From the sequence record PV292302.1: DNA of 64,000 bases; one strand, given 5' to 3'. Positions 1 through 40,160 of this stretch are shown here, one piece after another. Position 1 is the stretch's first letter, and each line of letters opens with the position of its first letter. Origin of the DNA: Escherichia phage Jgk1. Under the pieces are notes generated by a model. That model made no database searches. It saw nothing but the letters and a program-made list of their open reading frames with translations, and had not been told where the DNA came from. The position numbers and the translations under genes were made by a program.

Positions 1-56
1 CTAAATTACGTGTATGGCATATTCCACAAGTACCCGGCAAACCTTTCTATGTAGAA

Positions 57-308
57 GTGGACTCTGTAGCCGAAGGTGTTAAGGTCATAAAAACCCTTGC
101 GTTATATGACCAGTTCCAGTTAGATAATAACATTAAAGGTGACTTTTCAAACATGAATGGACTTGATATGTATGACGAAAGTCTTACAGACCAAGACCTA
201 TCTGATATAGGATTAGAAGACCGCTGGATATCCTGGTACTACGAAGATGACAATGAATTCTTTGATGACCCAGAAAGGTATCTTGACTGGCTTGCTACGC
301 AATCCTGA
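57..308 (+). CDS. hypothetical small highly acidic protein (candidate DNA-mimic / anti-restriction)
   Basis: 83-aa ORF, about 21 Asp/Glu versus 5 Lys/Arg; followed by a strong terminator at 360-388; early-region position. Confidence 0.4.
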   Translation: MDSVAEGVKVIKTLALYDQFQLDNNIKGDFSNMNGLDMYDESLTDQDLSDIGLEDRWISWYYEDDNEFFDDPERYLDWLATQS

Positions 309-359: not shown

Positions 360-388
360 GCCCACCCTTGCGGTGGGCATCTTTTTTT
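360..388 (+). terminator. rho-independent terminator
   Basis: 7-bp GC-rich stem GCCCACC/GGTGGGC with 5-nt loop, followed by a run of 7 T. Confidence 0.6.
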
Positions 389-454
389 GATTATTATGGG
401 CATCCTTAGTCCATCATTCTGTCAAATGAAATCAACCCTTAACCAAGTTAGAAA

Positions 455-483
455 AACCCCAGCATTGTCTGGGGTTTTTTTGT
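455..483 (+). terminator. rho-independent terminator (second of a tandem pair)
   Basis: stem CCCCAG/CTGGGG with 6-nt loop followed by TTTTTTT; about 70 nt downstream of the first terminator. Confidence 0.6.
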
Positions 484-512
484 TTTGGTGTTTAATTAAC
501 TGGAGAGTAAAA

Positions 513-731
513 ATGCAGATTATTGAAGAAAGTATCTATGTACCATTCGCTGATATTGGATGCGGCGAATGCTTCCGTACTCAAAGGGACAACTCGAATA
601 TTTATATGAAAATTGCTCTTCATAATGGCGATGAAACCGCTGTTAACATTGAGAATGGTTGCGAACATGAAATCCTTAATAAGGATACCTTCGAGGTTGT
701 GCCAGTAACAACCAAGGTACATGTTAGATGA
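513..731 (+). CDS. hypothetical protein (72 aa)
   Basis: in-frame ATG at 513 preceded by GGAGAG RBS; the longer ORF 315..731 would cross both terminator hairpins. Confidence 0.35.
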   Translation: MQIIEESIYVPFADIGCGECFRTQRDNSNIYMKIALHNGDETAVNIENGCEHEILNKDTFEVVPVTTKVHVR

Positions 732-2512: not shown

Positions 2513-3568
2513 ATGGCAAGTATCGACTCACTTGTTGTGTGTAACTCACGACAGGCTCGTAAGTTTGTTATCCGTACTTTGTTAGCAGGCAACGTTCCGT
2601 TCCTGACTTCATCTCCAGGTATGGGTAAATCTGCAATGATTCGTTCTATTGCAGAAGAATTTGGTATGAAGCTGATTGACCATCGTCTGTCTACTTCTGC
2701 CCCGGAAGACCTGTCAGGTCTGCCTCGTTTTACCTCAGATGGGCGTGCAGAGTTTGCACCATTCAATGACTTGTTCCCTCTGGAAGGGGATAAGATTCCT
2801 GATGGTTATAACGGCTGGCTTCTATTCCTGGATGAGTTTAACTCAGCCAAGAAGGAAGTAGTAGCTGCTGCATATAAACTGATTCTTGACCGTATGACTG
2901 GTCAGAAGAAATTACATGAAAATGTAATGATTGTCTGTGCTGGTAACAAACAAACTGACCGTGCCATCGTTAACCCAATGGGTACTGCAATGCAGTCTCG
3001 TGTGGTTCACTTTGAGATGGAAATGAATTTCGACATCTTTCTTGAAGATGTAATGATTCCTCAGAAGTGGGATGAACGTCTGGTTGCATTCCTTCATGCT
3101 AATACATCGTATCTGCATGACTTCGACCCAGCTCATAAGAACAAAACGTTCTGTTGTCCTCGTACATGGGACTTTGTTAACAAAGACCTTAAGAACCAGG
3201 CTCCTGGGGCTTTACCAGATGAAGATTCCCTCTATTATGCTGGTCATGTTACGGCAGGTAAGGCTACAGAATTCGTACAGTTTACTCAGGTTTATAACCA
3301 ACTGGTCACTATCGAACAGGTAGTTAAAGACCCGAAAAATGCACGATTACCCCAGGACAACAACCTGTGCTGGGCTACTGTTACATATCTCGCTAACAAG
3401 ACTACGGTAGACAATTTCCCAGAAATTGTGGAATACATTCAGCGTTTCAACACGATGACGCATCGTATTCTTTACTTCCGTGCAGCCAGTAAGATGTGTC
3501 CAGATGTCACTGGTTTACCAGAATGGCGTCAGGCTGCTGCTTCCCTGTCTCGTTACTTACACGGATAA
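2513..3568 (+). CDS. AAA+ ATPase, MoxR-like
   Basis: Walker A SPGMGKS, Walker B-like LLFLDEF; RBS AAGGA upstream. Confidence 0.7.
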   Translation: MASIDSLVVCNSRQARKFVIRTLLAGNVPFLTSSPGMGKSAMIRSIAEEFGMKLIDHRLSTSAPEDLSGLPRFTSDGRAEFAPFNDLFPLEGDKIPDGYNGWLLFLDEFNSAKKEVVAAAYKLILDRMTGQKKLHENVMIVCAGNKQTDRAIVNPMGTAMQSRVVHFEMEMNFDIFLEDVMIPQKWDERLVAFLHANTSYLHDFDPAHKNKTFCCPRTWDFVNKDLKNQAPGALPDEDSLYYAGHVTAGKATEFVQFTQVYNQLVTIEQVVKDPKNARLPQDNNLCWATVTYLANKTTVDNFPEIVEYIQRFNTMTHRILYFRAASKMCPDVTGLPEWRQAAASLSRYLHG

Positions 3569-3575
3569 AACAATA

Positions 3576-4748
3576 ATGAACCAGATACCTCAGCACACAC
3601 TTAGCGACGACCAACTGATGCGTGAATATGACCGTATTCAAGCTCAGGCATTCTTAGGTAAGAGTGCAGCTTTCTTTGGTTCGTTGCTGTGTAGCCTTAA
3701 ATTCTCATGGCAGCGTGAGAATTGTGAGACAGCTCAGACCGATGGTATTGAGCTGCAATTTAATCCAGACTTCTTTGTCTGGATGTGCCCAGATGCCAGG
3801 GAAACCGTGCTTATGCACGAACTCTGGCACGTAGCTTATCTTCACGGCATCCGTCAGGGTAGTCGTGATGGAAGCATTTGGAACGAAGCCTGTGACCATT
3901 TCATCAACCTTCAATTAGAAGCTGATGGTTATAAGTTCACTGGCATAGAAGATTGCTGCAAAGACCCACACTATATTGGATGGGTCGAAGAAGACATCTA
4001 CGATGACCTCATGAAGAACCCACAGAAAAGGCGTAAGCCGTCTGGTGGAATCTGTGATGGTCTTGCTGGCGACATGGTTACCCTCGCTTCAGGGTTGTCC
4101 CAGGGTGCTGTCGTCAACAACGTAGTACGTGCAATGCAGCAACAAAAACTAGCTGGTGGAACATTAGCTGGACAGGGTGCAGGGCGTTTAGAGGAAGTGA
4201 TTACTCAGTTCCTTAAGCCTGTAGTTCCGTGGCAGCAAGTCCTAATGGACTTCTTCACTGACATTGATGACACACGGTATACGTGGGCAAGACCTAACCG
4301 TCGGTACACTGATATCTATCTGCCATCTCTGGAAGATGATGAAGGACGTTTAAGACACCTGGTTTACTTCGAGGATGTATCCGGTTCTATTAGTAAGGCT
4401 GATTCTCTGCGTTTCAACTCAGAGGTTGCTTACGTTAAAAGTCAGTTCAATCCTAAAAAGATGTCTCTGGTCACTTTCGACGATATTATTCAGAACGAAA
4501 TTAATATCACCGAGGAGGATTCCTTCGAGGAGATTAAAATTACAGGACGTGGAGGCACTAGCCTCATTCCTGTACGTGACTGGATTATCAAACATAAACC
4601 AACGGCTGCTATCATCTTCTCTGATATGCATGTTGCTCCAATGCAAGAACTCCCGTTTGATATTCCTATCATCTGGGTTTGTTTAGGAAACCGTAGTGCT
4701 ACTGTACCTTTCGGTGAACTCTTACATATTGACCCAGGAATGAAGTAA
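3576..4748 (+). CDS. VWA-domain protein with N-terminal HExxH metallopeptidase-like motif (DUF2201-like partner of MoxR ATPase)
   Basis: HELWH motif and MIDAS-like DVSGS motif; immediately downstream of the AAA+ ATPase; start taken at first ATG after upstream stop. Confidence 0.55.
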   Translation: MNQIPQHTLSDDQLMREYDRIQAQAFLGKSAAFFGSLLCSLKFSWQRENCETAQTDGIELQFNPDFFVWMCPDARETVLMHELWHVAYLHGIRQGSRDGSIWNEACDHFINLQLEADGYKFTGIEDCCKDPHYIGWVEEDIYDDLMKNPQKRRKPSGGICDGLAGDMVTLASGLSQGAVVNNVVRAMQQQKLAGGTLAGQGAGRLEEVITQFLKPVVPWQQVLMDFFTDIDDTRYTWARPNRRYTDIYLPSLEDDEGRLRHLVYFEDVSGSISKADSLRFNSEVAYVKSQFNPKKMSLVTFDDIIQNEINITEEDSFEEIKITGRGGTSLIPVRDWIIKHKPTAAIIFSDMHVAPMQELPFDIPIIWVCLGNRSATVPFGELLHIDPGMK

Positions 4749-22554: not shown

Positions 22555-23310
22555 ATGTCCGAAGAGTTAATTGCCAATGACATGAACACTCAGCTAATCC
22601 TGATTGCAGGATTCTCAGCCAGTGGTAAGTCGGCATCACTTCGTAACCTCAGGAACCAGGAACGCTGGTTATATCTGAATACCGAGGCAGGTAAGCGTCT
22701 GCCATTCCGTAATAAGTTTCAGTCTTACAACATCGAAGACCCTTATCAAATTTGGGAAGCATTCGATGCTGCATCACCTGGTGGTGATATGGTTGATGAC
22801 ATTGATGGAATCATCATTGACTCAGCCACATTCATGATGGATATGCTGGAATCCCAGTATGTACTCCCATCTGCAAATACCCAGAAAGCCTGGGGTGACT
22901 TTGCTCAATTCTTCAAAATCCTGCTGCAACAAAAAGTTGTTAAGTTCGGCAAGCCAGTAATTATTACTGCCCATGCCAAAGACGAACTGGATGAAGCTGC
23001 TGGTGTAATGAAGACATTCATCCCAGTCAAGGGCTCATTGAAAAATAATGGCCTGGAAGCTTACTTCTCAACTGTGGTGTATGCAGAACGAGTAGACATC
23101 AAGGAACTGGAGAAGTACGGCAATAAGATGCTGGAAATTACAGAGGAAGAGCGTGACTTAGGTTATAAGCACGTATTCCAAACCAGACCAACTAAGAAAT
23201 CAGTTGGCAAACGTCTTCGTTCACCAATGGGTATGTTTGAGAAATCAGAAACCTACATTGATAACGATGCTCAGAAACTTCTCGACCACCTGGCTGAATA
23301 CTACGCCTAA
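22555..23310 (+). CDS. RecA-like ATPase (Sak4-like recombination protein)
   Basis: Walker A GFSASGKS near N-terminus, Walker B-like IIIDSA; 251 aa. Confidence 0.5.
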   Translation: MSEELIANDMNTQLILIAGFSASGKSASLRNLRNQERWLYLNTEAGKRLPFRNKFQSYNIEDPYQIWEAFDAASPGGDMVDDIDGIIIDSATFMMDMLESQYVLPSANTQKAWGDFAQFFKILLQQKVVKFGKPVIITAHAKDELDEAAGVMKTFIPVKGSLKNNGLEAYFSTVVYAERVDIKELEKYGNKMLEITEEERDLGYKHVFQTRPTKKSVGKRLRSPMGMFEKSETYIDNDAQKLLDHLAEYYA

Positions 23311-23348
23311 GCGTTTGCCTGGTTGTTAAAAAATTAATAGGAAATCAC

Positions 23349-24146
23349 ATGTCAAATCTGTTCGGTAATCTGAAAGAAAAAACCAAAAACGCTGAAGCTG
23401 CTAAAGACTCCCTGGGTGGAAGTGGCTTCGCTGCTAAAGAATCTGATATCTACACCGGTGACGTTAAAGTCGCTTACGTAGGTAAAGCTGACTCTGGTGC
23501 AGACTGGATGCAACTCATCGTCGAAAATATGAAGACCTCCGATGGTCTTGATGCTGGCGAATTCCGTGCACAAGTGTACTTCACTTCTGGTAAGGATAAA
23601 GGCAATAAGCCTACTTACGAGAAGAATGGTAAAGAGTATTACCTGCCTGGTTATACCGTAATCAATGACATGATGCTCATGGCTACTGGCAAAGAACTCT
23701 TTGAGGCAGACTTCGAAGAGAAGATTGTTAAAGTCTATGACTTTGACCAGAAAGCAGAAGTTAACAAGTCAGTCATGGTTCCAGTTGACCTGATTGGTCA
23801 GAACATTATGTTCGCTCTGGAGAAAGTCATCGAATCCAAGCAGACCAAGGGCGATGATGGTAAGTATTACGATAACGGGGAAACTCGTGAAGTAAACGAA
23901 ATCCAGAAACTGTTCCACCCGGAACTGCTGGTAACTGTCGTTGAAGCTCAGGAAGCTGAGAAGGCAGAGAAAGAACTGACTCCAGAACTGGCAGTATTCC
24001 ATGCTGCATGGTTGGATAAGAACAAAGGTAAAACCCGTGATAAGGCTAGCAAGTCTGCGGGTAAAGCAGGTACTCCACCTAAACCTGGTGCTGGTGGTTC
24101 AAGCTCTGCTCCAGCAGGTGGCAAGTCTCTGTTCGGTAAGAAATAA
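23349..24146 (+). CDS. single-stranded DNA-binding protein (putative, N4 gp45-like)
   Basis: 265 aa with Gly/Pro-rich flexible C-terminal tail ending ...GGKSLFGKK; position next to the Sak4-like gene. Confidence 0.45.
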   Translation: MSNLFGNLKEKTKNAEAAKDSLGGSGFAAKESDIYTGDVKVAYVGKADSGADWMQLIVENMKTSDGLDAGEFRAQVYFTSGKDKGNKPTYEKNGKEYYLPGYTVINDMMLMATGKELFEADFEEKIVKVYDFDQKAEVNKSVMVPVDLIGQNIMFALEKVIESKQTKGDDGKYYDNGETREVNEIQKLFHPELLVTVVEAQEAEKAEKELTPELAVFHAAWLDKNKGKTRDKASKSAGKAGTPPKPGAGGSSSAPAGGKSLFGKK

Positions 24147-24706
24147 TGCAAATCCCAATTCTCGGAGCAGATATTTCACTTCGGAATTGGGGATTAGCAA
24201 GGGGTATGCTGGACATTGAATCCGGTGTGTTTGAGAAGGTAGAACTCAAACTGGTTCAGACTGAAGTTGACCACAACAAGCAAGTCCGAACCAACTCCAA
24301 AGACATTCAAGCTGCTCATGATATCTTCATTGGCGTAAGAGACTGGCTCATTGACGATAAGCCTAAAGCTATCTTCATTGAAGTGCCTGTAGGTTCTCAG
24401 TCTGCTAATGGCATGAAATCCTACGGCTTGTGTGTCGGACTCGTTGGGGCATTCCGTGCATTGGGATGCCCTGTATTCGAGGTATCCCCTACCGAAAATA
24501 AAATTGCACTGGCTGGCAGTAAGACAGCTTCCAAAGACGTAATGATACGTACTGCCCATGAAATCTATCCTGAAGCTAACTGGCTCAAGGATGGTAAGGG
24601 CAAGTTGCTCAATAAGAATGAGCACTTAGCTGATGCTATCGGTGCAATCCATGCTGGAGTTAATCTTCCAGCGTTTCAAAACTTACTGAATATGTTAAAG
24701 GCTTAA
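24146..24706 (+). CDS. RuvC-like Holliday junction resolvase
   Basis: N-terminal ILGADISLRNWGLA (compare RuvC ILGIDPG...) and C-terminal EHLADAIGAIHAG motif. Confidence 0.5.
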   Translation: MQIPILGADISLRNWGLARGMLDIESGVFEKVELKLVQTEVDHNKQVRTNSKDIQAAHDIFIGVRDWLIDDKPKAIFIEVPVGSQSANGMKSYGLCVGLVGAFRALGCPVFEVSPTENKIALAGSKTASKDVMIRTAHEIYPEANWLKDGKGKLLNKNEHLADAIGAIHAGVNLPAFQNLLNMLKA

Positions 24707-24707
24707 C

Positions 24708-25214
24708 ATGCAAATCACATTAAATCATGCCGAAGTAGAAGGTATTCTGGCTGCCCATATCGTAACTGCAATGCCTTCTGTTGAACCAGAAGAAGTAATT
24801 GCGGTTATCATCAACGAAGATGGTTCTGCAACCATTGGTATTGGTGAGGGGGTAGGCTCAGATAATGATACTCCACCCGTGGTAGAAAAACAGAAACGTA
24901 CCCGTGGACCAAATAAACGTAATCCACAGGAAGCAAAGCATCGTCCTGTGAACCAGGAACCAGAAGCTGGGGAACAAACCCCGACTACAGTTGGTGGTCA
25001 GAACGGGAGTTCTACGCCGGAACCTGAAGCTCAGGGCGAACAAGTTGTAACTCCTGAAGAACAGCTGAAGGAAGAAGCAACTGAACAGGCTGAAGAAGCT
25101 GCATCAGAAGAAGCTTCTCAGGAAGCAGGGGTACAACAGGAAGTTCAGGAGGAGAAGGTTGCCGAAGCACCTGCTACTGCTAAACCATCTCTGTTCGCTG
25201 GCCTGAAACGTTAA
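24708..25214 (+). CDS. hypothetical protein with acidic low-complexity C-terminal half
   Basis: 168 aa; Glu/Gln/Pro-rich C-terminal region. Confidence 0.4.
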   Translation: MQITLNHAEVEGILAAHIVTAMPSVEPEEVIAVIINEDGSATIGIGEGVGSDNDTPPVVEKQKRTRGPNKRNPQEAKHRPVNQEPEAGEQTPTTVGGQNGSSTPEPEAQGEQVVTPEEQLKEEATEQAEEAASEEASQEAGVQQEVQEEKVAEAPATAKPSLFAGLKR

Positions 25215-25455
25215 TCTGGTAGGTGGCTCAGAAGCTACTGCTATTTGTGGTAGTGTTCATAATTCTGATGCTATTGCTTATCAGGATTCTGGACGTGTCG
25301 GCTCCATACATAGCCTTTATCATCACTGTCCTTATCCTATGGAAATGGAAATGCAGTGAAAAGTCCGGTGGTGACAAGCCGCCAGATTAATAACAAACCG
25401 AACCAGTGTGCAGGAATACTCTCCCCTGTGCACTGGTTCCAATAGGACGTTAACT

Positions 25456-29816: not shown

Positions 29817-32800
29817 TTAGTTAACAATGTTCATCCACGGGTTAAGGTTATGAGCACGAAGCCCTTGACCGAAGCCCCATGAGTAATCCAGTTTGCCCTG
29901 TGCTGCAATACTGAAAATGTTGTCCTGAATAGGCAAACCAACGTTACCAAACATAGTAGGAGTTGGAGCCAACATTGCCATTGCTGCATGGACTGGGTTA
30001 TTACGAACCATAGATACGGCAACCTTAGCTGAACGAATCTTAAAGTTGTAGAACCACATCAGACCCATGCTTTCCATATAACCACGGAAACGACCAGGCA
30101 AACGGTCATAGTTAACGAACTCTTCAGTAACACGTCCAAGTGCTTCTTCACGAGTCTTGCCTTTACGCTTAGTCAGTTCATCATAGATGATTGCTTTAGC
30201 GATAAAGTCAGAGTACTCAACAGTCTTCTGAATACCCTGGAACAATGCAGTATCTTTAGTGATAAGAGCATAACGTCCAGCAGTACGAACAGCCTTAGGC
30301 AGTTTATTAGCCAGTGCATCCATGTACTCGTAAATCTTACCCTCAGTAATGAGAATATCATCACGACCGATACCAGCATCAGCGATAGAAGAAAACTCAC
30401 CTGCTTCTAACAGAGGCCAGATACTCATACGCTTATGACTATCAGTAATGGACTGAATCTCAGCCTTAAGCTTACGAATCTGGTTCGGATTAGTAGCTGC
30501 ACGTAATTCAGCTTCTGCATCAACCTGACGAAGACGAGATTTCAGATACTGGTTAATCTCACTGGTTTTCTGTGGGATACCTTGAGCAATATTCTTCAGA
30601 GGTACACCACGAGCAACCATCTGGTAAAGGTTAGCAATGAAGTTAACCGCAGGTACTACGACCGATTTAACAACAATCAGAGTCTTAGCATCTTTAATCA
30701 GGTTCTGAATAAGGTTCTCACCACCCATAGTGTACTTGTAAGCATTGTTACCCATTGCACCAAGCAGAGCTTTCTTAAAGGTACTCAGTGTCTCCGGTGA
30801 CCAACGACTATTACCAGACCATACATCACCCACAGAAGCAGCACGATAACCAAGTGCATCATTTAGCATGTCACGACGTACCCATAGTTCACCTTCACCA
30901 AACAGGCTTTCAGCTTTACGGCGAGTTTCTGCATTCATCAGTCGCAGAGCATCAGCAGTTACTGGGTCAAGTTTGGAACCAAGAAGGTTCACGTACTGGG
31001 ACTTATTGGATGCAGAGTCAGAGATATCCTTCTCGTACATAGCATGTAAGTTTTCAATCAGTACATCGTTAAACTGCTGTGCTTTGGCTTCTTCAACCTG
31101 ACGACCACGCCATACACCAATTGCTTTGGCAAGATGGTCATCACCAGCAATGTGCTGCAACATGTTAGGGTCAATGGATTGCTCATAAGCAACCACACGA
31201 CCGTTGTTATCGTAAATTGGCATCAGTGGTTCATTACCACGTTCACCACGAGCCAGGGCTTTAGAGATACGTTCTACGGATGGTTTGTCAGTAATACGAC
31301 CTGCAACCATAGCACCCATCGTGAAGCCTGTTCCCATATCAACACCATTAGCAGTATCACGCACGTTCTGAAGGATACCCTGAGAGAACGGGGCTTGTGC
31401 CTGTACTGGTGAGAAGTAGTAGCTGCGAGCACGACCACGGTCAGCAGAGCTACCCTGATAAGCACCTAAACGGGTGTAAGACTTCTCAAGCAGTTCTGAA
31501 TACTGGCTGTCATCTGCAACGATAAGGTTAACACCCTGTTTATTTTCAACAGGAATGTAACCCTTATAGTGGTTAAGAGCAGCACGGTCATCAGCACTGG
31601 CTTTAGTCATCTCGTCTTTACGCTGACCCACCAGATAAGAAGTAGCAAAGTCGATACCATCAGTTTCACTTTGAGCCAGTGAAGATAATGATTCCCGGTC
31701 AGCTTTGCTCATTGCTTCCAGAGCATAGAGGGTAATCAGCTTATCCAGTTTAGCTACATCAACCGTAGACTTAACAGCAGTACGCTCACCCAGCAGACGA
31801 GAGATAGCAGTAGCATTACGAAGCAGGTTGTTACCAACAGTACCATTAATCATAAACTGAGCCAGTTGCTTAGACTTACGGTTAATCAGAGGCCAGTTAC
31901 GACCAGCCTGATTCTGCAAGTCTGCTTCCAGTTTATTAACTTCACGGTCAACAATCTTCTGGTCAGATAGCAGGTCACGAATCTCAGCTAATGACATGGT
32001 ATCACGTAGTACAGCCAGGTCAGTTTTACCCATACCAGTATGCATCGCTTTCCATTCTTCTTTAGTCAGCTTACGGCTGAACTTAGAAGCAATGGTAGTT
32101 GGCAGATGCTCACGGAATTGCTGACGGTCAGCCTGTATCTGAGAACGCACTGCCTTAATCAAATCGTACACAGAAGCATTGCTCTTAGTACGACCAGTAA
32201 GGTCATTAATCAAGTCATGGAAAGGTTGCCATACCTTACCCTGGTTCATTGCTTTCATAACACCTTCAGCAACAATCTGGCCATTCTCTTCAGTAGCTAC
32301 AGCAGCAACCAGTTGTGCAGCATGAGCAGTTGCTTTAACCAGTGGATTTTTAGCAGTCTGTGCAACAGTACGTGCTTTATCCAGAGTGGCATCAGCCAGT
32401 TGAGTAATACCATCAATAACGTACTGATTAGCACGGTCAATAGCATTTCCGGTTGGGGTAGCAACTGAGTCATAGAAGGACTGAGCATTCAGGCTACTTT
32501 CCATAATGGTCTGAGCCAGAGCATCCATACCCTCCTGTACATTAGTAGCTTTACTGTCACCAGCAATGCGAGCATTCAAACTAGCCATTGCAGAAGTACC
32601 AATGTTAGTCAGCATTGCATCAACAGTATTACCAGTTACCTTATCTGCTTTCATGACGGGCATTTCAGCCAGTACATTGCGTAATTCTTCACTTACCATT
32701 GCCAGACCAACAAAAGTAGGCAGTAAGGAAGAACGACCCTGAGCATCAAACTCAATATTGTTAGCACCAGTAATGGTGTCGAACTTCTGCTGTGCGTAGT

Positions 32801-35800
32801 AGCGGTCAGCAGGGTTAGTGCTATTAGGGTCTGCCATGAAACTTTCAACAGTCAGGTTCTTAGTCACATGTGCATAGTATTCCTGTGCACGAGACAGAGC
32901 AGCAGGACTGATTGCAGCTTCAGTAGCGAGAGCAGCAACGATATTAGTAAATAGACGCTGTTCCTGCATGTTCATGGTAAAACCGTGACCCTGTACATCA
33001 CGGGTAACTTTGGTTGCATTAACCAGAGCATCAGAGAATTTACCCTTACGGATATACTGCTGTACTGGTTCATTACCCAGGTAGTTAACAATCAGGTTAT
33101 CAAACGTCTGACCCAGTTCTGCAAGACGGTCATTGTTACCGTAAGCGGTACTATGGAACAGGGTTGTATCTTTGGATACAGCAGCAGTTGGAGCCTGAGA
33201 ACGCATAACTACAGCAGAGTTAAACAGCAGGTTAGAGAACATATCATCAGAGTTAGCAGGTGCTTTCTTACGCCCGAATACCAGACGCTTAATTGCATCA
33301 TACACAGACTGAATCATAGCTTTCAGTGCAGAGGTCTTCTTCTGTTTAGCTGCCAGTTCACGGTTGGTTAAACCCCAAGCCATGTACTCGTTAAGAGCAG
33401 CAGACTTAGCCAGTGCTGGTTCAATGAAGCCATTAGACAGATGTCCATTAATGGTGTTAAGAGCATCAGCATAAGCTTCACGCATAGCTGGAGACTCTTT
33501 ACTAACATCCAGTGTACGGAACTGATTCATCAGGTCTTCAATGTTCTGTACTGCTTCATTAGGAGTACCCTCGTAGTGAGCCAATACGCTTTCGAATGTG
33601 GAAGCGTGAACCAGTTCATGAACCAGGGTTTCCAGTGAATGGGTAACTAGGTAAATGGTTTTATCTTCAAAATTTGTCCAGCCATATGCATTACCTGCTT
33701 CAGCAGCTTCCATATCTTCTGGAGCCGGACGAGTAATGTTCTTCTCAACAGCGTAAGCATCTAGTTGAGCAAGAGTACCGTAGACAACTTTATAGTCTTT
33801 AGCAGCCTGAGACTTTTGAATCTCATTCAGCACTGCTTGCTGTTCAGGAGTCATTTCCTTAAGCAGCTTAGTGATTGCAGTGTTAGACAGCAGACGTACA
33901 CCAGACTTAAGAACACGACCTACTTGTTCCATAGCCGGAACTTCTTTAACTGGTTCTGCTTTATCAGCACGAACAGCATCGCGTCGTTTATTCAATTCTG
34001 CATCGAACAGTTCGTTCAGCTTAGCTACCTGCTGGTCTACAGTCAGACCTTCCAGAATAACCTGCCCATTGTTCACGTAAGGAGAACCAACAGCAGCCAT
34101 TTGGTCAACAGTTGTCTGTACTTGATTCATTACTGTATGACGGATATCCACACCAAGGGCAATGTTACGCAGGTTACGTTCAATCTGAGTAGCAGCCATC
34201 ATCAGGTCTTGGTCGGTTGCACCTTCACGGAGTTCAAACTCCAGAGCAGACTTACCAATAGCTTTCTTGGTTTCATCAGACAACTTAGAGAAGTCAACGT
34301 TCTTCATGAACTTAGCATAAGAGTTATATACATCTTTGATAGGGTTACCCTGCCATGAAGTGTATACAGCTTCGTTAGCTTTTTGACTTGCATCAGTAAT
34401 GTCATTAATACCAATGTTCATACCATCAAAGATTTTGAGAGTATTTTTTGGAGCACCTTTCATAGTAGAAAGGGTCTGCATCATCATCCCATCACCAGTA
34501 CCAATGGTCATGAATGGGATACCAGCAACACCTGCCTGAGATGGTGCATAGATGCTCATTGGCACACGCATACGGTCATCAAAGTTAGTAGCCAGTACCT
34601 GATTAGCAACATCAGTATTCTCACTACCAGCAATGTAGAAAGTCTGGGAACCAGTCTCAATCATTGGAGCCAGAGGAGCTAAGCTAGCCTGGATGTCATT
34701 CAGTTCTTTCTGAGTTAAGAAATCACCCTTCTTCCAGGTAGGGTCTTTTTCTTTTTCTGCCAGTTTGTCTTGTACAGCTTGCTGGAACATGTCTTGCAGA
34801 ACCAAAGACTGAATCTGAGTAGCCTTCTGAAGTTGTTCAGTAGAGTACATCAGACCCTCACCCACAGTATTCTGAATACCAGTACGCATTGGTTCAACGA
34901 ACAAGTGCAGCATATTCTCTTGCAGGTTTTTCAGAGCATCACCTTTAACGGTGAATTTCTGTGGGTCGAGCTTACCTGTGATAGCACCATCGGCTGGCTG
35001 TACTGAGAGCTGGCCTTTACGCATAACAGTTACGTTACCAGTAAGGGCTTCCATAGAATCCAGGAAAGTTTTCAGCATAGCCTCAGCATCGGCCTCAGAC
35101 GCTGCCTCTTTGCCGAACATAGCCATAGCCGGGGAAATGTCCGGGTTCTTAGCACGGGCTTGCAGAACGTCACTGAAGCGTTCGTAGATGGTGTCAGTAA
35201 TTGCACTAACCATCTTGCCAGCAATACCACGAGCACCCGAACCATAAATGGTAATGGTCAGAGGGTTCTTAGCGATACCACGTTTAAGGTCAAGTGACCC
35301 ATCCTCATTCAGGTTAAAGTCCTTGATGAACAAGTCCATTAAGTTCTGAAGGTGATTCATCTGGTTCATTACAGGAACATTGTTACTGTATGCATTACGC
35401 AGTTCATTCAGAGCTTGTTGTAGGCTATTAGTGGATGCTTCATACAGGTCAACGCTGTCATCCTGTGAACGATGTTCGTTCATAGTCTTACCACGCTTAC
35501 CAAAGAACAGACCACCTTTAGCAGTATTGCGAATCCAGTCTGGAGTGAACTTACCACCAGTCATTAATACCATTGCGTTAATAGGACCGTTAGTAACACC
35601 ATCTGCTTCTACATACAGTGGGGTAGTAAACTTAGTCTTATCTTCAGCATTCAGGTAACGGGCATATTCCATCAGAGCCATGAGAGCTACGAATGACTTG
35701 TCTCCACCCAGAGCAGTATCAAGAATACTTACTGCATCAGTAGGCAGATTACCTGACTTATCAAATTCAACCATCATATCTACAGCAGGTTTCAGTTTAC

Positions 35801-38800
35801 CTTCCAGAGCAGTAGTAAGTTTCTCAGACATGGCTTCACGAGACATGTTGTGAACTTTAATACCGAGTGCCTGAGCCAGGCCAACCTGGAAATCAGAGAA
35901 GGTCTGTGAGTTCTGGTTAGAAACATCAATGGTAGAGAATGTAGGTAAGATAGCCTCACGAACCAGTTTACTAGACTGTGGGTTGTTCTTACCAAGCATC
36001 TGCATACGACCAACACGGGTCATGTTGTAAGCATAATGGATAGGGGTTTCCAACCCTGCTTCTTGTTCCTGAACTTGTGACACAACACCAAACAGAGAAT
36101 CATATGCCATAGCTACCGAGAGGTTTTTACCTTCCAGTGACTTAGCAGTATTCACATTCAGTAATTCAGGGTTCAGAGTACCAGCACCCATTAATTCCAG
36201 AATGTTGTCACGTCCCATAGCTTCATAGAACTTAACCATTGGTTCATGAACACGGAACTCAGTAGCCTGTTCTGCTTTCAGGGCAGCTTTCTGTTCAGGG
36301 GTATTCTTAACAGCAGGGTTACGTAGCTGAGTTTGAGCCACGGAAGGTACATCATCACCGAAGTACATTTTCTCTTCTGGTTCCACAAGCACTGCTTCTT
36401 CAATGGCAGTTGGGAACTTGTTGATAGCATCGTTATCGTCAAGCTTCTCAATGGTATACAGACCAATAGTCTTGTTAGAGTCTGGGTCAATCTCAGACAC
36501 ATCAAGCATGGACTCAGTAACTTCACCTATTTCTACCAGAGAGGACAGAATCTCAGTAGCCATAGCCATTGGGATACCTTTGGTATAACCCAGTGGTGCA
36601 TCAGGATTACGATTAAGTCCCCAGTAAGACTCAATCTTTTGAGCCAGGGAGTTAGTAGCTTCGACCAGGGTCTGTGCATTATCAAAACTAGCCAAAATAC
36701 CTTCAGGCAGCAGAGATGCATCAATGCCAGTAATAGCAGCAATGTCTTTGATGTCTTTGGTAGCAGCATTCTGATTAGCAGTTAAACGCCATTGCAGTCC
36801 AGCAAGTACAGCAGTTTCAAGCAACTGGTCATTGAACTTGAAGGTATCCCCATCAGCTTCAACAATGTTCAGTAACTTACCACCAACCCAACGGTTAGCC
36901 TCAGTACCTTCAGCAAAGCGTTTGCCAACATTTTTATTAGCAAGGAACTTAGCCAGACGGTCTGACATGGTATTTTTCAGCTTGTCACCAAAGTCCATCA
37001 GAGTCTTATAACGGGCAATGACATCTGGAGTAAGTGCAGCATTCTCACTCTGAGTGAACGTTTCAAAACGTGCAGCAGAAGACAGTGCCTGACCTACATC
37101 TTTCAGAGGAGACTCAGTACCAACGATACGAGACTTAGGCTCAATTGGAAGACTGAAAGCTTTAAGGAATTGGTTAGGTGTCTTCTCTGTATTATGCAGA
37201 GGATACACATTTTCCATTTCTGTTTTAGCTTCAACAGGTTCCTCAATAGCAATTGCCTTTTCAGACTCTGGATTAGTTACTTCTTCTGATTTTGGTTTAG
37301 TCTCATTAACAGGAGCAGTATTTTCTACCACTGGTTCTGCCTTAGGAGTTACAGTAGGTTTAGCCTCCTGAGTTTTTGCAGGAGTTTCATCAACCTGATT
37401 CACTGGTTCAGTAGTCTGTTGGGATTGAGCAACATCAAGATTGCCTTGACGGAACTCTTTAACCACCTGGGCAGCAGGCTTGTCCAGACGTGAATCCAAT
37501 GAGGTAACTTTAACATGAGAGACATTAAGCTCCGGGTAAGCCGTAGCAAGTGCATTAGCAATATCAGCTACGGTTTTGGCTTCCAGTCCTACTTGCTGGG
37601 CAAACTTAACAGACTTGGTATCGTAAGGATTAACACCGAGTCCAGTACGGCTGCGTACCCATTCACGGGATGGAGAAAGAGCCTCATAATGGACAGACTT
37701 ATTCTTATCCGCATTCCCAGAAACCAAATGCTCATTCAACGCTCCGACCTTATTCTGCATGTGCTGGGCGAACTTCATAAAGTCGTCAAGGTAAGCGGAG
37801 GCCAAATCGAAGTTACCAGAGTTGTACGCAGAGCGAATGCGTTTAGCATGTTGCAACGCAGAGTACTGGCCTTCGTTAGAACGAGACTCATCGGTCTTAA
37901 TTTGTTTACTAACGATGTCCTGAGGTCGTAAACCCAACTCCTCTGCCTTGGTATCGAACTCTCGTGCTCCCTGTAATACAGCAGCAGCAGATTGCAGGGC
38001 AGCACGTTGACGGTTACCCAGAGTAATTTTCCCTTCACTAGCATGTTTCAGAACCATGTTAACTGAATCGGCATCCAGTACTTCTGGAGAGATATCAGCA
38101 GCCATAGCAATATTATCTGCTTGTTGTTGAGTAGTATTCTCAGTAGCCTTCAACTGACCAGCTTCAGCTTGTTCCTGAATCATAGAGTGAATAGCACGGA
38201 AAGCACGAAGTACCTTAGGGGTATTCTGCACGTTAGCCATTAAGCCAGAGAACTGGTCAACAATAGCAGCAGCAGGGCTGTCCTTAGGCAGGTTATTAAG
38301 AGCACCTGGGTCACGATTAATGAAGCTATCCAGTGACATGATGTTGTCATACATGTTCACAGCAGCTTCCATCTGCACGTTAGGGTCTTCGGCAGTATTA
38401 ACCAAATCTGCCATCTTCTGAATAGCATCAACACGGTTAGTAGACTGAGCTACTGCCTCACGAACAACAGGGTGAGCTTGTTCCATTTCCACAGGGTCAA
38501 AGTTAACAGCCTGTGTCAGGTCATTTGCATACTGGTGTGCAGCAGCTTTCTCTTCTGGAGAAATATTCATAGCATCAACAGCATCAGCAACAGTGGTCTG
38601 TGCTTGTTCTGCTTGTTGAGCAGCTTCTTGTGCAGCAGCATTAACCGTAGCATCAGCAACAGGGGAAGCCTGTTCATTCTGCTTAGCAAGGTTTTCACCA
38701 CGTTGAACCAGGATGTTAGTAATTGGGGATGCAGCTTTAGCTACCACATTACCAGCAGCATTAAGACCAGCCAGGGTAGTACGGATAGCAGGACCAGCAG

Positions 38801-40160
38801 CAATACTTGCTGAACCAGCAGCAGCACCAGGAGCTTGAGCAACCCCAGCAGAGCCAAAGCCATAAAGAGCACCCAGACCAGCTTGCTCACCAACACCTTT
38901 AAGAATGTCACGTTTTTCATCGACATTGCTCTTAATTGCACGGTTCTGTGCATACTGACCAGCACCCGATTGAATACCTTCTTCAACCGTCTCACGAAGC
39001 ATGTTGGAGCCAGCACCAGCCAGTGAACCTACCTTCAGTGGATTAAGTTCAAACTTGGATACCAGTGGACCAGTTGCAGCAGCTACAGGAGCAGTGATTG
39101 CAGCAGCATCAATACCAGTTTCAGATGCAGTCTGACGACGTGCCTCATCTGGGGTCATACCATCAGCAATATGCTGTTTGTATAACGGAGACTTAGCCAG
39201 TAGTTCAGAGTGAGGCATCTTCATAATTTCAGATGCAGTTTGTTGATAAGCACCACCAGCTTCCATTGCACCAATAGCAATGGCAGGGGCAGCAATAGTA
39301 CCAGCTTTAATAGCAGCAGTTGCTGGCTTATAGCCAAGCTCAGAAGCGAGAGTAATACCCTTAACGGCTTTCTCACCGAGCATAACTTTACCCAGTGCAG
39401 ATACACCACGAATCAGTGGACCACCTGTAAACAGGGAACCAACACCTTCCGCTAGCCCATCAGTTGCTGCCATCCCATTATCGAGAGTATTGGCAACAGA
39501 GTCGAAAGCGTCACGACCAATGCGAGACAAAGAAGCAACAAGAGGACTTTCACCATCTTTAATTTCCTGGTCATATTTGAATTGGTTAGCTTGTGCAGAA
39601 ATCTGGTTCTGATTAGCTACAACTTTACGGGTTGCATTAAGTGCATCAGACTGTAGACCATGCATCCCTTCATTCAGCCAATCCATTCCAGAAGCAATGG
39701 TTGCCCCAGCATTATCATTGAGTAAACCTGCACCAAGAGCAGCAATGCCCCCAAAGGTATTAGCAACACCAAGACCAACACCAGAAGCAGTATCACCCAG
39801 TGCTTGTGCATTAGAACGTTCCATTGAAAGGTCTTGACGTACTGCATCAGCAGCATTGGCACGACTGTTAAGAATCTGGAATCCTTGCTCAGTACCGTAC
39901 TTAGTAATGATTTCCATAGGGGAGGCTTGCGTAAAATCAGCCTGAAGGGAACCTGGAGTGAAGGCATCAATACCTAAATTACCGACACGACCTGTCTGGA
40001 GATTATAGGCATTCTCTGGGGTTAATTGGAAAGGGCTTTGCCCTTGTTCAGCTTGCTTCTGAGAGGTTGCAGTAGAGACATCGACTTGCTTAGCATTAGT
40101 GATGCTGTCTGCGAAACCTGCCAGACGGTCAAATGTTGACATGGCTTGTTTCCTGTTCAA
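29817..40160 (-). CDS. giant virion-encapsidated RNA polymerase (N4 gp50-like vRNAP)
   Basis: single uninterrupted 3447-aa ORF, terminal gene of the minus-strand late block, as in N4 (about 3500 aa); AGGA RBS. Confidence 0.8.
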   Translation of the reverse strand: MNRKQAMSTFDRLAGFADSITNAKQVDVSTATSQKQAEQGQSPFQLTPENAYNLQTGRVGNLGIDAFTPGSLQADFTQASPMEIITKYGTEQGFQILNSRANAADAVRQDLSMERSNAQALGDTASGVGLGVANTFGGIAALGAGLLNDNAGATIASGMDWLNEGMHGLQSDALNATRKVVANQNQISAQANQFKYDQEIKDGESPLVASLSRIGRDAFDSVANTLDNGMAATDGLAEGVGSLFTGGPLIRGVSALGKVMLGEKAVKGITLASELGYKPATAAIKAGTIAAPAIAIGAMEAGGAYQQTASEIMKMPHSELLAKSPLYKQHIADGMTPDEARRQTASETGIDAAAITAPVAAATGPLVSKFELNPLKVGSLAGAGSNMLRETVEEGIQSGAGQYAQNRAIKSNVDEKRDILKGVGEQAGLGALYGFGSAGVAQAPGAAAGSASIAAGPAIRTTLAGLNAAGNVVAKAASPITNILVQRGENLAKQNEQASPVADATVNAAAQEAAQQAEQAQTTVADAVDAMNISPEEKAAAHQYANDLTQAVNFDPVEMEQAHPVVREAVAQSTNRVDAIQKMADLVNTAEDPNVQMEAAVNMYDNIMSLDSFINRDPGALNNLPKDSPAAAIVDQFSGLMANVQNTPKVLRAFRAIHSMIQEQAEAGQLKATENTTQQQADNIAMAADISPEVLDADSVNMVLKHASEGKITLGNRQRAALQSAAAVLQGAREFDTKAEELGLRPQDIVSKQIKTDESRSNEGQYSALQHAKRIRSAYNSGNFDLASAYLDDFMKFAQHMQNKVGALNEHLVSGNADKNKSVHYEALSPSREWVRSRTGLGVNPYDTKSVKFAQQVGLEAKTVADIANALATAYPELNVSHVKVTSLDSRLDKPAAQVVKEFRQGNLDVAQSQQTTEPVNQVDETPAKTQEAKPTVTPKAEPVVENTAPVNETKPKSEEVTNPESEKAIAIEEPVEAKTEMENVYPLHNTEKTPNQFLKAFSLPIEPKSRIVGTESPLKDVGQALSSAARFETFTQSENAALTPDVIARYKTLMDFGDKLKNTMSDRLAKFLANKNVGKRFAEGTEANRWVGGKLLNIVEADGDTFKFNDQLLETAVLAGLQWRLTANQNAATKDIKDIAAITGIDASLLPEGILASFDNAQTLVEATNSLAQKIESYWGLNRNPDAPLGYTKGIPMAMATEILSSLVEIGEVTESMLDVSEIDPDSNKTIGLYTIEKLDDNDAINKFPTAIEEAVLVEPEEKMYFGDDVPSVAQTQLRNPAVKNTPEQKAALKAEQATEFRVHEPMVKFYEAMGRDNILELMGAGTLNPELLNVNTAKSLEGKNLSVAMAYDSLFGVVSQVQEQEAGLETPIHYAYNMTRVGRMQMLGKNNPQSSKLVREAILPTFSTIDVSNQNSQTFSDFQVGLAQALGIKVHNMSREAMSEKLTTALEGKLKPAVDMMVEFDKSGNLPTDAVSILDTALGGDKSFVALMALMEYARYLNAEDKTKFTTPLYVEADGVTNGPINAMVLMTGGKFTPDWIRNTAKGGLFFGKRGKTMNEHRSQDDSVDLYEASTNSLQQALNELRNAYSNNVPVMNQMNHLQNLMDLFIKDFNLNEDGSLDLKRGIAKNPLTITIYGSGARGIAGKMVSAITDTIYERFSDVLQARAKNPDISPAMAMFGKEAASEADAEAMLKTFLDSMEALTGNVTVMRKGQLSVQPADGAITGKLDPQKFTVKGDALKNLQENMLHLFVEPMRTGIQNTVGEGLMYSTEQLQKATQIQSLVLQDMFQQAVQDKLAEKEKDPTWKKGDFLTQKELNDIQASLAPLAPMIETGSQTFYIAGSENTDVANQVLATNFDDRMRVPMSIYAPSQAGVAGIPFMTIGTGDGMMMQTLSTMKGAPKNTLKIFDGMNIGINDITDASQKANEAVYTSWQGNPIKDVYNSYAKFMKNVDFSKLSDETKKAIGKSALEFELREGATDQDLMMAATQIERNLRNIALGVDIRHTVMNQVQTTVDQMAAVGSPYVNNGQVILEGLTVDQQVAKLNELFDAELNKRRDAVRADKAEPVKEVPAMEQVGRVLKSGVRLLSNTAITKLLKEMTPEQQAVLNEIQKSQAAKDYKVVYGTLAQLDAYAVEKNITRPAPEDMEAAEAGNAYGWTNFEDKTIYLVTHSLETLVHELVHASTFESVLAHYEGTPNEAVQNIEDLMNQFRTLDVSKESPAMREAYADALNTINGHLSNGFIEPALAKSAALNEYMAWGLTNRELAAKQKKTSALKAMIQSVYDAIKRLVFGRKKAPANSDDMFSNLLFNSAVVMRSQAPTAAVSKDTTLFHSTAYGNNDRLAELGQTFDNLIVNYLGNEPVQQYIRKGKFSDALVNATKVTRDVQGHGFTMNMQEQRLFTNIVAALATEAAISPAALSRAQEYYAHVTKNLTVESFMADPNSTNPADRYYAQQKFDTITGANNIEFDAQGRSSLLPTFVGLAMVSEELRNVLAEMPVMKADKVTGNTVDAMLTNIGTSAMASLNARIAGDSKATNVQEGMDALAQTIMESSLNAQSFYDSVATPTGNAIDRANQYVIDGITQLADATLDKARTVAQTAKNPLVKATAHAAQLVAAVATEENGQIVAEGVMKAMNQGKVWQPFHDLINDLTGRTKSNASVYDLIKAVRSQIQADRQQFREHLPTTIASKFSRKLTKEEWKAMHTGMGKTDLAVLRDTMSLAEIRDLLSDQKIVDREVNKLEADLQNQAGRNWPLINRKSKQLAQFMINGTVGNNLLRNATAISRLLGERTAVKSTVDVAKLDKLITLYALEAMSKADRESLSSLAQSETDGIDFATSYLVGQRKDEMTKASADDRAALNHYKGYIPVENKQGVNLIVADDSQYSELLEKSYTRLGAYQGSSADRGRARSYYFSPVQAQAPFSQGILQNVRDTANGVDMGTGFTMGAMVAGRITDKPSVERISKALARGERGNEPLMPIYDNNGRVVAYEQSIDPNMLQHIAGDDHLAKAIGVWRGRQVEEAKAQQFNDVLIENLHAMYEKDISDSASNKSQYVNLLGSKLDPVTADALRLMNAETRRKAESLFGEGELWVRRDMLNDALGYRAASVGDVWSGNSRWSPETLSTFKKALLGAMGNNAYKYTMGGENLIQNLIKDAKTLIVVKSVVVPAVNFIANLYQMVARGVPLKNIAQGIPQKTSEINQYLKSRLRQVDAEAELRAATNPNQIRKLKAEIQSITDSHKRMSIWPLLEAGEFSSIADAGIGRDDILITEGKIYEYMDALANKLPKAVRTAGRYALITKDTALFQGIQKTVEYSDFIAKAIIYDELTKRKGKTREEALGRVTEEFVNYDRLPGRFRGYMESMGLMWFYNFKIRSAKVAVSMVRNNPVHAAMAMLAPTPTMFGNVGLPIQDNIFSIAAQGKLDYSWGFGQGLRAHNLNPWMNIVN

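Follow-up and report, generated by a model that had tools for sequence, protein, structure and literature searches.

A candidate counter-defence factor in an N4-like phage: a truncated, strongly acidic gene of the P22 gp17/N4 gp18 family

Introduction

A phage sequence whose left end encodes a small, very acidic protein, with a strong terminator just behind the gene, raises the question of what such a protein acts against. The original prediction, which was made for an 83-codon ORF ending at base 308, was an Ocr/ArdA-like DNA mimic that would inhibit restriction enzymes or other DNA-binding defence proteins. Small α/β DNA mimics do exist. Family membership, gene order and the one genetic phenotype recorded for the family point to a different kind of counter-defence. 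With a probability of roughly 0.6, we propose that the gene encodes an N4 gp18 orthologue that neutralizes post-injection exclusion by prophages, as P22 gp17 does against Fels-2.

Results

Phage context and limits of the gene

DNA searches place the window (the whole 64,000-nucleotide stretch that was analysed) in an N4-like podophage of the Schitoviridae with Moovirus and Gamaleyavirus relatives. The top nucleotide matches are Shigella virus Moo19, St11Ph5 and G7C, and Moo19 is ~86% identical to the window in DNA across parts of the first 3 kb. An ORF of 3447 aa on the minus strand (29817–40160) has the size expected for a virion RNA polymerase. Homology with the Moo19 and N4 loci at the DNA level begins at window base 3. 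In N4 and Moo19, the orthologue sits after RNAP1, RNAP2 and the decoration protein gp17, at ~11% of the genome, and judging from the aligned sequences the feature probably occupies this N4 gp18 position, with its upstream neighbours lying beyond the window edge. The position, just past the RNAPII genes and gp17, is the early/middle boundary in N4, and a review of N4 transcription assigns gp18 to neither the early nor the middle class.

The reading frame does end at 308 and an 83-aa ORF with a GTG start does exist in it, but the coordinates and length given for the gene were wrong, as the frame is open back to base 3. Translation of this longer stretch gives 101 residues beginning KLRVWHIPQVPGKPFYVEV (101 codons and the stop are visible), and homology to more than 130 proteins spans residues 1–101. 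The 18 codons 5′ of the proposed GTG carry the most conserved motif of the family (LRVWHIPQVPGKPF), which, together with the frame open to base 3, indicates that the gene is cut by the left edge of the window. In an alignment of 72 sequences, the family-invariant residues P8, Q9 and F15 all precede the GTG, which must thus be an internal valine codon, and the nearly invariant L2, R3, V4, W5, I7, P11, K13 and V17 likewise lie upstream of it. Given that homology and conserved positions extend upstream and that relatives are 104 aa long, the 83-aa ORF is a truncated call.

The closest homologues begin M-[TS]-Q-K-LRVWHIPQVP (more loosely, M-x-Q-K-LRVWHIPQVP). Because they have 104 aa, the true start probably lies outside the window, ~3 codons upstream of base 1. 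The Moo19 gene starts with a GTG located nine bases ahead of the counterpart of window base 3 in the alignment. Exact look-ups of the products of the two downstream ORFs, and exact DNA pattern scans of viral and metagenome contigs, gave no match from which the missing 5′ end could be read. The window gene may also have a longer form of ~154 aa, as found in a few relatives. Two metagenomic N4-like homologues (P0009 and P0011) are called at 154–155 aa with a ~50-aa N-terminal extension, which contains a Walker-A-like GxxxxGKS motif (ITGPQCCGKSR) and may be either a fused upstream small gene or part of a real long isoform; BFVD holds a 154-aa family member from a Serratia phage. Two ORFs on the opposite strand (47–154 and 239–403) were rejected as spurious in view of the strong homology of the plus strand.

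Family membership and distribution

The translation matches Pfam PF17420 ("GP17, superinfection exclusion gene product 17") with E 2.1e-42 and 143.7 bits (gathering cut-off 25 bits) over profile positions 2–96 of 98, and PHROG 1510 with E 9e-44. By tblastn over 100% of the query, it is 69% identical to proteins of Gamaleyavirus, U1G and PGN829.1, 63% to that of Moo19 and 62% to P22 gene 17; identity to N4 gp18 is 65% over 96% of the query. The conserved motifs LRVW.IPQ.P.K.F and LA.YD.FQ..N.IK.D are both present, and the protein has the consensus residue at every invariant and nearly invariant column of the 72-sequence alignment. Ten columns are invariant (P8, Q9, F15, L32, Y35, D36, F38, Q39, N42 and K45); aromatic, polar and basic side chains predominate among them, and D36 is the sole acidic residue, while K45 is basic. 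On these sequence grounds, the protein is the N4 gp18 orthologue and a member of the P22 gp17 family, in keeping with the GenBank note on N4 gp18, "similar to P22 gp17".

The best phage matches to the gene are only ~71% identical in DNA, and the closest protein found in database searches is at most ~70% identical. Judged by these comparisons, the feature is a new sequence within a well-known family that has been annotated for decades in N4 and P22. The family comprises 1243 clusters at 50% identity (E ≤ 1e-3; 843 at E ≤ 1e-10) and occurs in P22-like and Stx-converting temperate phages, N4-like phages, Kuttervirus and related large myophages, and Bacillus and Gordonia phages. The gene was found in 329 of the 50,697 records searched and is absent from many N4-like phages; scatter of this kind over unrelated phage groups is what mobile accessory and anti-defence genes typically show. 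Some longer homologues are fused to members of the N4 gp49/Sf6 gp66 family, to DUF6166 or to an RNAP alpha-CTD-like segment. These fusions were discarded as a clue to function, as the partners are heterogeneous and may be gene-call fusions.

Terminators and the downstream region

The strong terminator noted behind the gene was recovered by the terminator scan as a 7-bp stem with six G–C pairs followed by a T-run (Table 1). The stem is kept in Moo19 (ACCTCCC/GGGAGGT) and in N4 (GCCCTCC/GGAGGGC), where changes on both sides preserve the pairs, and the intergenic region folds more stably than shuffled controls (z = -5.0). The conserved intrinsic terminator would close the transcription unit right behind the gene. 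The small hairpin that follows the stop codon has a counterpart at the same position in Moo19 (GGGTT..AACCC) and in N4; it was not predicted as a local hairpin in the MFE fold, and may contribute to a two-hairpin signal for termination or processing. An Rfam scan of the region gave sub-threshold chance matches only.

Table 1. Coordinates of the features at the left end of the window.
Feature	Position	Strand	Basis
CDS of the P22 gp17/N4 gp18 family (PF17420), 5′-truncated	3..308	+	open frame, Pfam, PHROG, tblastn
GTG formerly read as start; internal Val codon, residue 19 of the visible 101	57..59	+	conserved residues upstream
Small hairpin GGGTT-GAAA-AACCC just past the stop codon	319..332	+	sequence reading, three-way alignment
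Intrinsic terminator GCCCACC-CTTGC-GGTGGGC (360–378), then ATCTTTTTTT	360..388	+	terminator scan; MFE and centroid folds
Second terminator-like hairpin (449–482), 14 pairs, A-run/T-run flanks	449..492	+	terminator scan, fold, alignment

The second terminator-like hairpin sits in an insertion of ~80 bp that is missing from Moo19 and N4. With this insertion, the hairpin and an unrelated 72-aa ORF (513–731, plus strand; PHROG 7431, function label unknown), positions 389–731 (plus strand) have the appearance of a cargo-swap point; in N4 and Moo19, the gp18 terminator is followed by gp19, a membrane protein, and gp20, a lipoprotein/HflC-like protein.

Several genes further downstream on the same strand also deserve comment. 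Two overlapping ORFs, 1802–2149 (115 aa) and 2115–2501 (128 aa), both match PHROG 11912, the first at positions 6–110 and the second at positions 143–226 of its 226 positions; since each matches a part of this family, they correspond to one protein in some phages, and the gene in the window, like gp35 and gp36 of Moo19, is either split or joined by a frameshift. The second of these ORFs is the second most acidic in the window (net charge -17). A gp24-like ATPase (2513–3568) precedes an N4 gp25-like gene (3579–4748, plus strand), which matches PHROG 1314, labelled "HNH endonuclease". A roseophage paper annotates the N4 gp25-like protein as a member of the vWFA superfamily, and the PHROG label is probably an error.

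P22 gene 17 and exclusion by Fels-2

The RefSeq note on P22 gene 17 reads "allows growth on phage Fels2 lysogen", and two papers (PMC6486243 and PMC9409062) say, each with reference to Semerjian et al. 1989, that P22 requires gp17 to overcome superinfection exclusion by Fels-2. This is the only genetic phenotype of the GP17 family, and it has been shown for P22 alone. As the phenotype is one of escape from exclusion, the product name "superinfection exclusion" reverses the known role. Our literature search for the molecular target of gp17, or for the Fels-2 factor that excludes P22, returned only restatements of the 1989 phenotype. P22 also encodes ral (restriction alleviation), as a separate gene in the same PL operon as gene 17.

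Fels-2 (NC_010463) has a single cargo locus (22639–25335), flanked by the portal gene on one side and the replication region on the other. The locus encodes STM2723.1, a 565-aa AbiU/AIPR protein (PADLOC AbiU, E 2.7e-112; Pfam AIPR, E 8.8e-43) and the sole recognizable intracellular defence gene in the locus, and STM2726, a lipoprotein-like ORF of 243 aa with an LTGC lipobox. Both are annotated "hypothetical protein" in NC_010463, and each is a candidate determinant of the classical Fels-2 exclusion that affects P22 17- mutants. Of the two, the AIPR protein seems the more plausible target for a cytoplasmic inhibitor. This exact AIPR allele was found in only 7 of 5426 complete E. coli genomes, which makes it unlikely to drive selection in a coliphage or Shigella phage unless a broader class of proteins is recognized.

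This rarity also lends something to a second reading, in which the protein serves host takeover or regulation through a non-defence target, for example a host DNA- or RNA-binding protein, and the Fels-2 phenotype is indirect. The fixed syntenic place beside the phage RNA polymerase II genes in N4-like phages fits such a role, as does the conserved non-acidic motif, which suggests one partner across hosts from Bacillus to Salmonella. Against it stand the accessory-like distribution described above, with the gene scattered over unrelated taxa and missing from many N4-like phages, and the growth of P22 17- mutants on Fels-2-free hosts that is implied by the "allows growth" note. We consider a host-takeover role unlikely.

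Acidity and predicted fold

The protein is indeed strongly acidic, as had been noted for the 83-aa version (21 of 83 residues Asp or Glu, net charge -16). The visible 101 residues include 22 Asp or Glu and have a net charge of -14 and a pI of 4.05; none of the other 62 putative genes counted in the window is as acidic. Negative charge is concentrated in the C-terminal 60 residues, where the acidic residues lie mostly in loops and helices. Net charge is negative in all 72 aligned family members, averaging -13.7 (range -9 to -21). The segment richest in acidic residues (58–74) varies by insertions and deletions and is shortened or missing in distant members.

An AlphaFold2 model computed from the 72-sequence alignment (mean pLDDT 95.3, pTM 0.83) confidently predicts a compact α/β fold of the order β-β-α-β-α-β-α, with strands at 2–7 and 15–19, a helix at 22–41, a strand at 51–57, a helix at 63–69, short strands at 75–86 and a helix at 90–100. 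The invariant residues map to the β1–β2 loop, the end of helix 1 and the loop after it. A Foldseek search of the model against the PDB returned nothing significant. The best match, ERH (E 0.85, TM 0.37–0.43), was rejected as a fold relative, since a TM of about 0.4 at an E of about 1 is no evidence of kinship, and a search against BFVD returned family members only. Searches of PDB chain sequences, with the single sequence and with a profile, gave matches at chance level only.

These results bear directly on the proposed Ocr/ArdA-like DNA mimicry directed at type I restriction–modification or other DNA-binding defence enzymes. The charge, the pI, the rank among window ORFs and the retention of negative charge throughout the alignment are what a mimic of this kind would be expected to show. 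However, membership of the Ocr or ArdA families found no backing, as Pfam at E ≤ 1 returned GP17 and two chance-level matches and the PDB sequence searches gave no match to either. The predicted fold also spoke against an Ocr/ArdA-like mimic: the model, at a pLDDT of 95, has no fold match among solved structures and no similarity to a solved DNA mimic among the 41 Foldseek PDB matches listed. The invariant columns with their single acidic residue, and the loss of the acid-rich segment in distant members, are further points against it, and the genetics do not fit either: P22 has ral beside gene 17, whose phenotype concerns exclusion by Fels-2 and not restriction, and Fels-2 has no evident restriction–modification system beyond an orphan Dam-like methylase. 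Anti-restriction by DNA mimicry is hence quite improbable. From sequence, a conserved patch combined with an acidic half fits specific protein binding better than an Ocr-like array of phosphate mimics; nucleic-acid mimicry at some other target is possible, because strong negative charge is kept in all 72 aligned members. What survives of the original prediction is counter-defence as such, through homology with P22 gene 17 and its phenotype, and not the anti-restriction mimic.

No transmembrane segment was found, with a maximum 19-residue Kyte–Doolittle hydropathy of 0.80 (the usual threshold is ~1.6), and the full-length homologues have no N-terminal hydrophobic segment. The gene product is thus predicted to be a soluble protein of ~104 aa with a pI of about 4. 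It matched none of the PADLOC defence models. A true superinfection-exclusion protein that guards the infected cell against secondary phages, as the label in most GenBank records would have it, is highly improbable, given that the label derives from a P22 phenotype running the opposite way, that the protein has neither the signal peptide nor the transmembrane segment of classical entry-blocking proteins, that no defence model is matched, and that the gene is common in strictly virulent phages.

Discussion

Neutralization of prophage exclusion is proposed to proceed as follows. The protein would be expressed from the injected genome and act in the cytoplasm, where it would neutralize an intracellular, post-injection exclusion of the abortive-infection type carried by resident prophages. 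The countered exclusion would have to act after injection, because the product is predicted to be cytoplasmic and would be made only once the genome has entered. The protein would probably act by binding a defence protein stoichiometrically; the β1–β2 loop (IPQVP.K.F) and the end of helix 1 with the next loop (YD.FQ..N.IK.D) make up an invariant patch that could provide the contact surface, and the conserved negative charge of the C-terminal half could assist binding. We infer all three elements of this proposal, namely a role like that of P22 gp17, a mode of action through direct binding, and which protein is the target.

A more specific version can be derived from the Fels-2 cargo locus, in which GP17 proteins would serve phages widely as inhibitors of AbiU/AIPR abortive-infection proteins, with the patch docking onto the defence protein and the acidic half filling its nucleic-acid-binding site. 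We regard this version as unlikely to be correct. If true, the family would contain the first anti-AbiU protein to be known and would offer a way into the mechanism of AIPR proteins, and the link from P22 gene 17 through the Fels-2 cargo locus to AbiU/AIPR, which we infer, is a hypothesis that is cheap to test.

The broader interest lies in the family itself, which numbers more than 1200 clusters at 50% identity, occurs in very different phages and has a confidently predicted fold without a PDB counterpart. Three annotations can be corrected at the same time: the ORF call was truncated, the protein belongs to an N4/P22 family that is decades old, and its "superinfection exclusion" label is backwards.

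Comparison with known systems

Exclusion proteins of the P22 SieA type block entry and are membrane or periplasmic proteins, whereas the window protein has no transmembrane segment (hydropathy 0.80). T7 Ocr and ArdA resemble it in being small and very acidic and in having a counter-defence role, which for the window protein is assigned by homology. The window protein shares neither sequence nor fold similarity with them, is predicted to be compact and α/β with an invariant patch that is not acidic, and belongs to a family whose known phenotype differs from restriction alleviation.

The N4-like orthologues, among them N4 gp18, Moo19 gp29 and the proteins of U1G, PGN829.1 and G7C-like phages, belong to the same family and are 63–69% (Moo19, U1G, PGN829.1) or 65% (N4) identical to the window protein. 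The N4 and Moo19 loci share the downstream terminator hairpin with the window; they continue with gp19 and gp20, whereas the window phage has an extra terminator and the unrelated 72-aa ORF. P22 gp17 (103 aa, PF17420, PHROG 1510) is 62% identical over all 101 visible residues, and the two proteins agree in length class, in net charge (-14 in both) and in the invariant motifs. An annotated terminator directly 3′ of P22 gene 17 mirrors that of the window gene. The genomes around the two genes differ: P22 is a temperate Lederbergvirus that carries the gene in its PL operon among ral, c3, kil, erf and abc, whereas the window genome is that of a virulent N4-like podophage with its own RNA polymerases.
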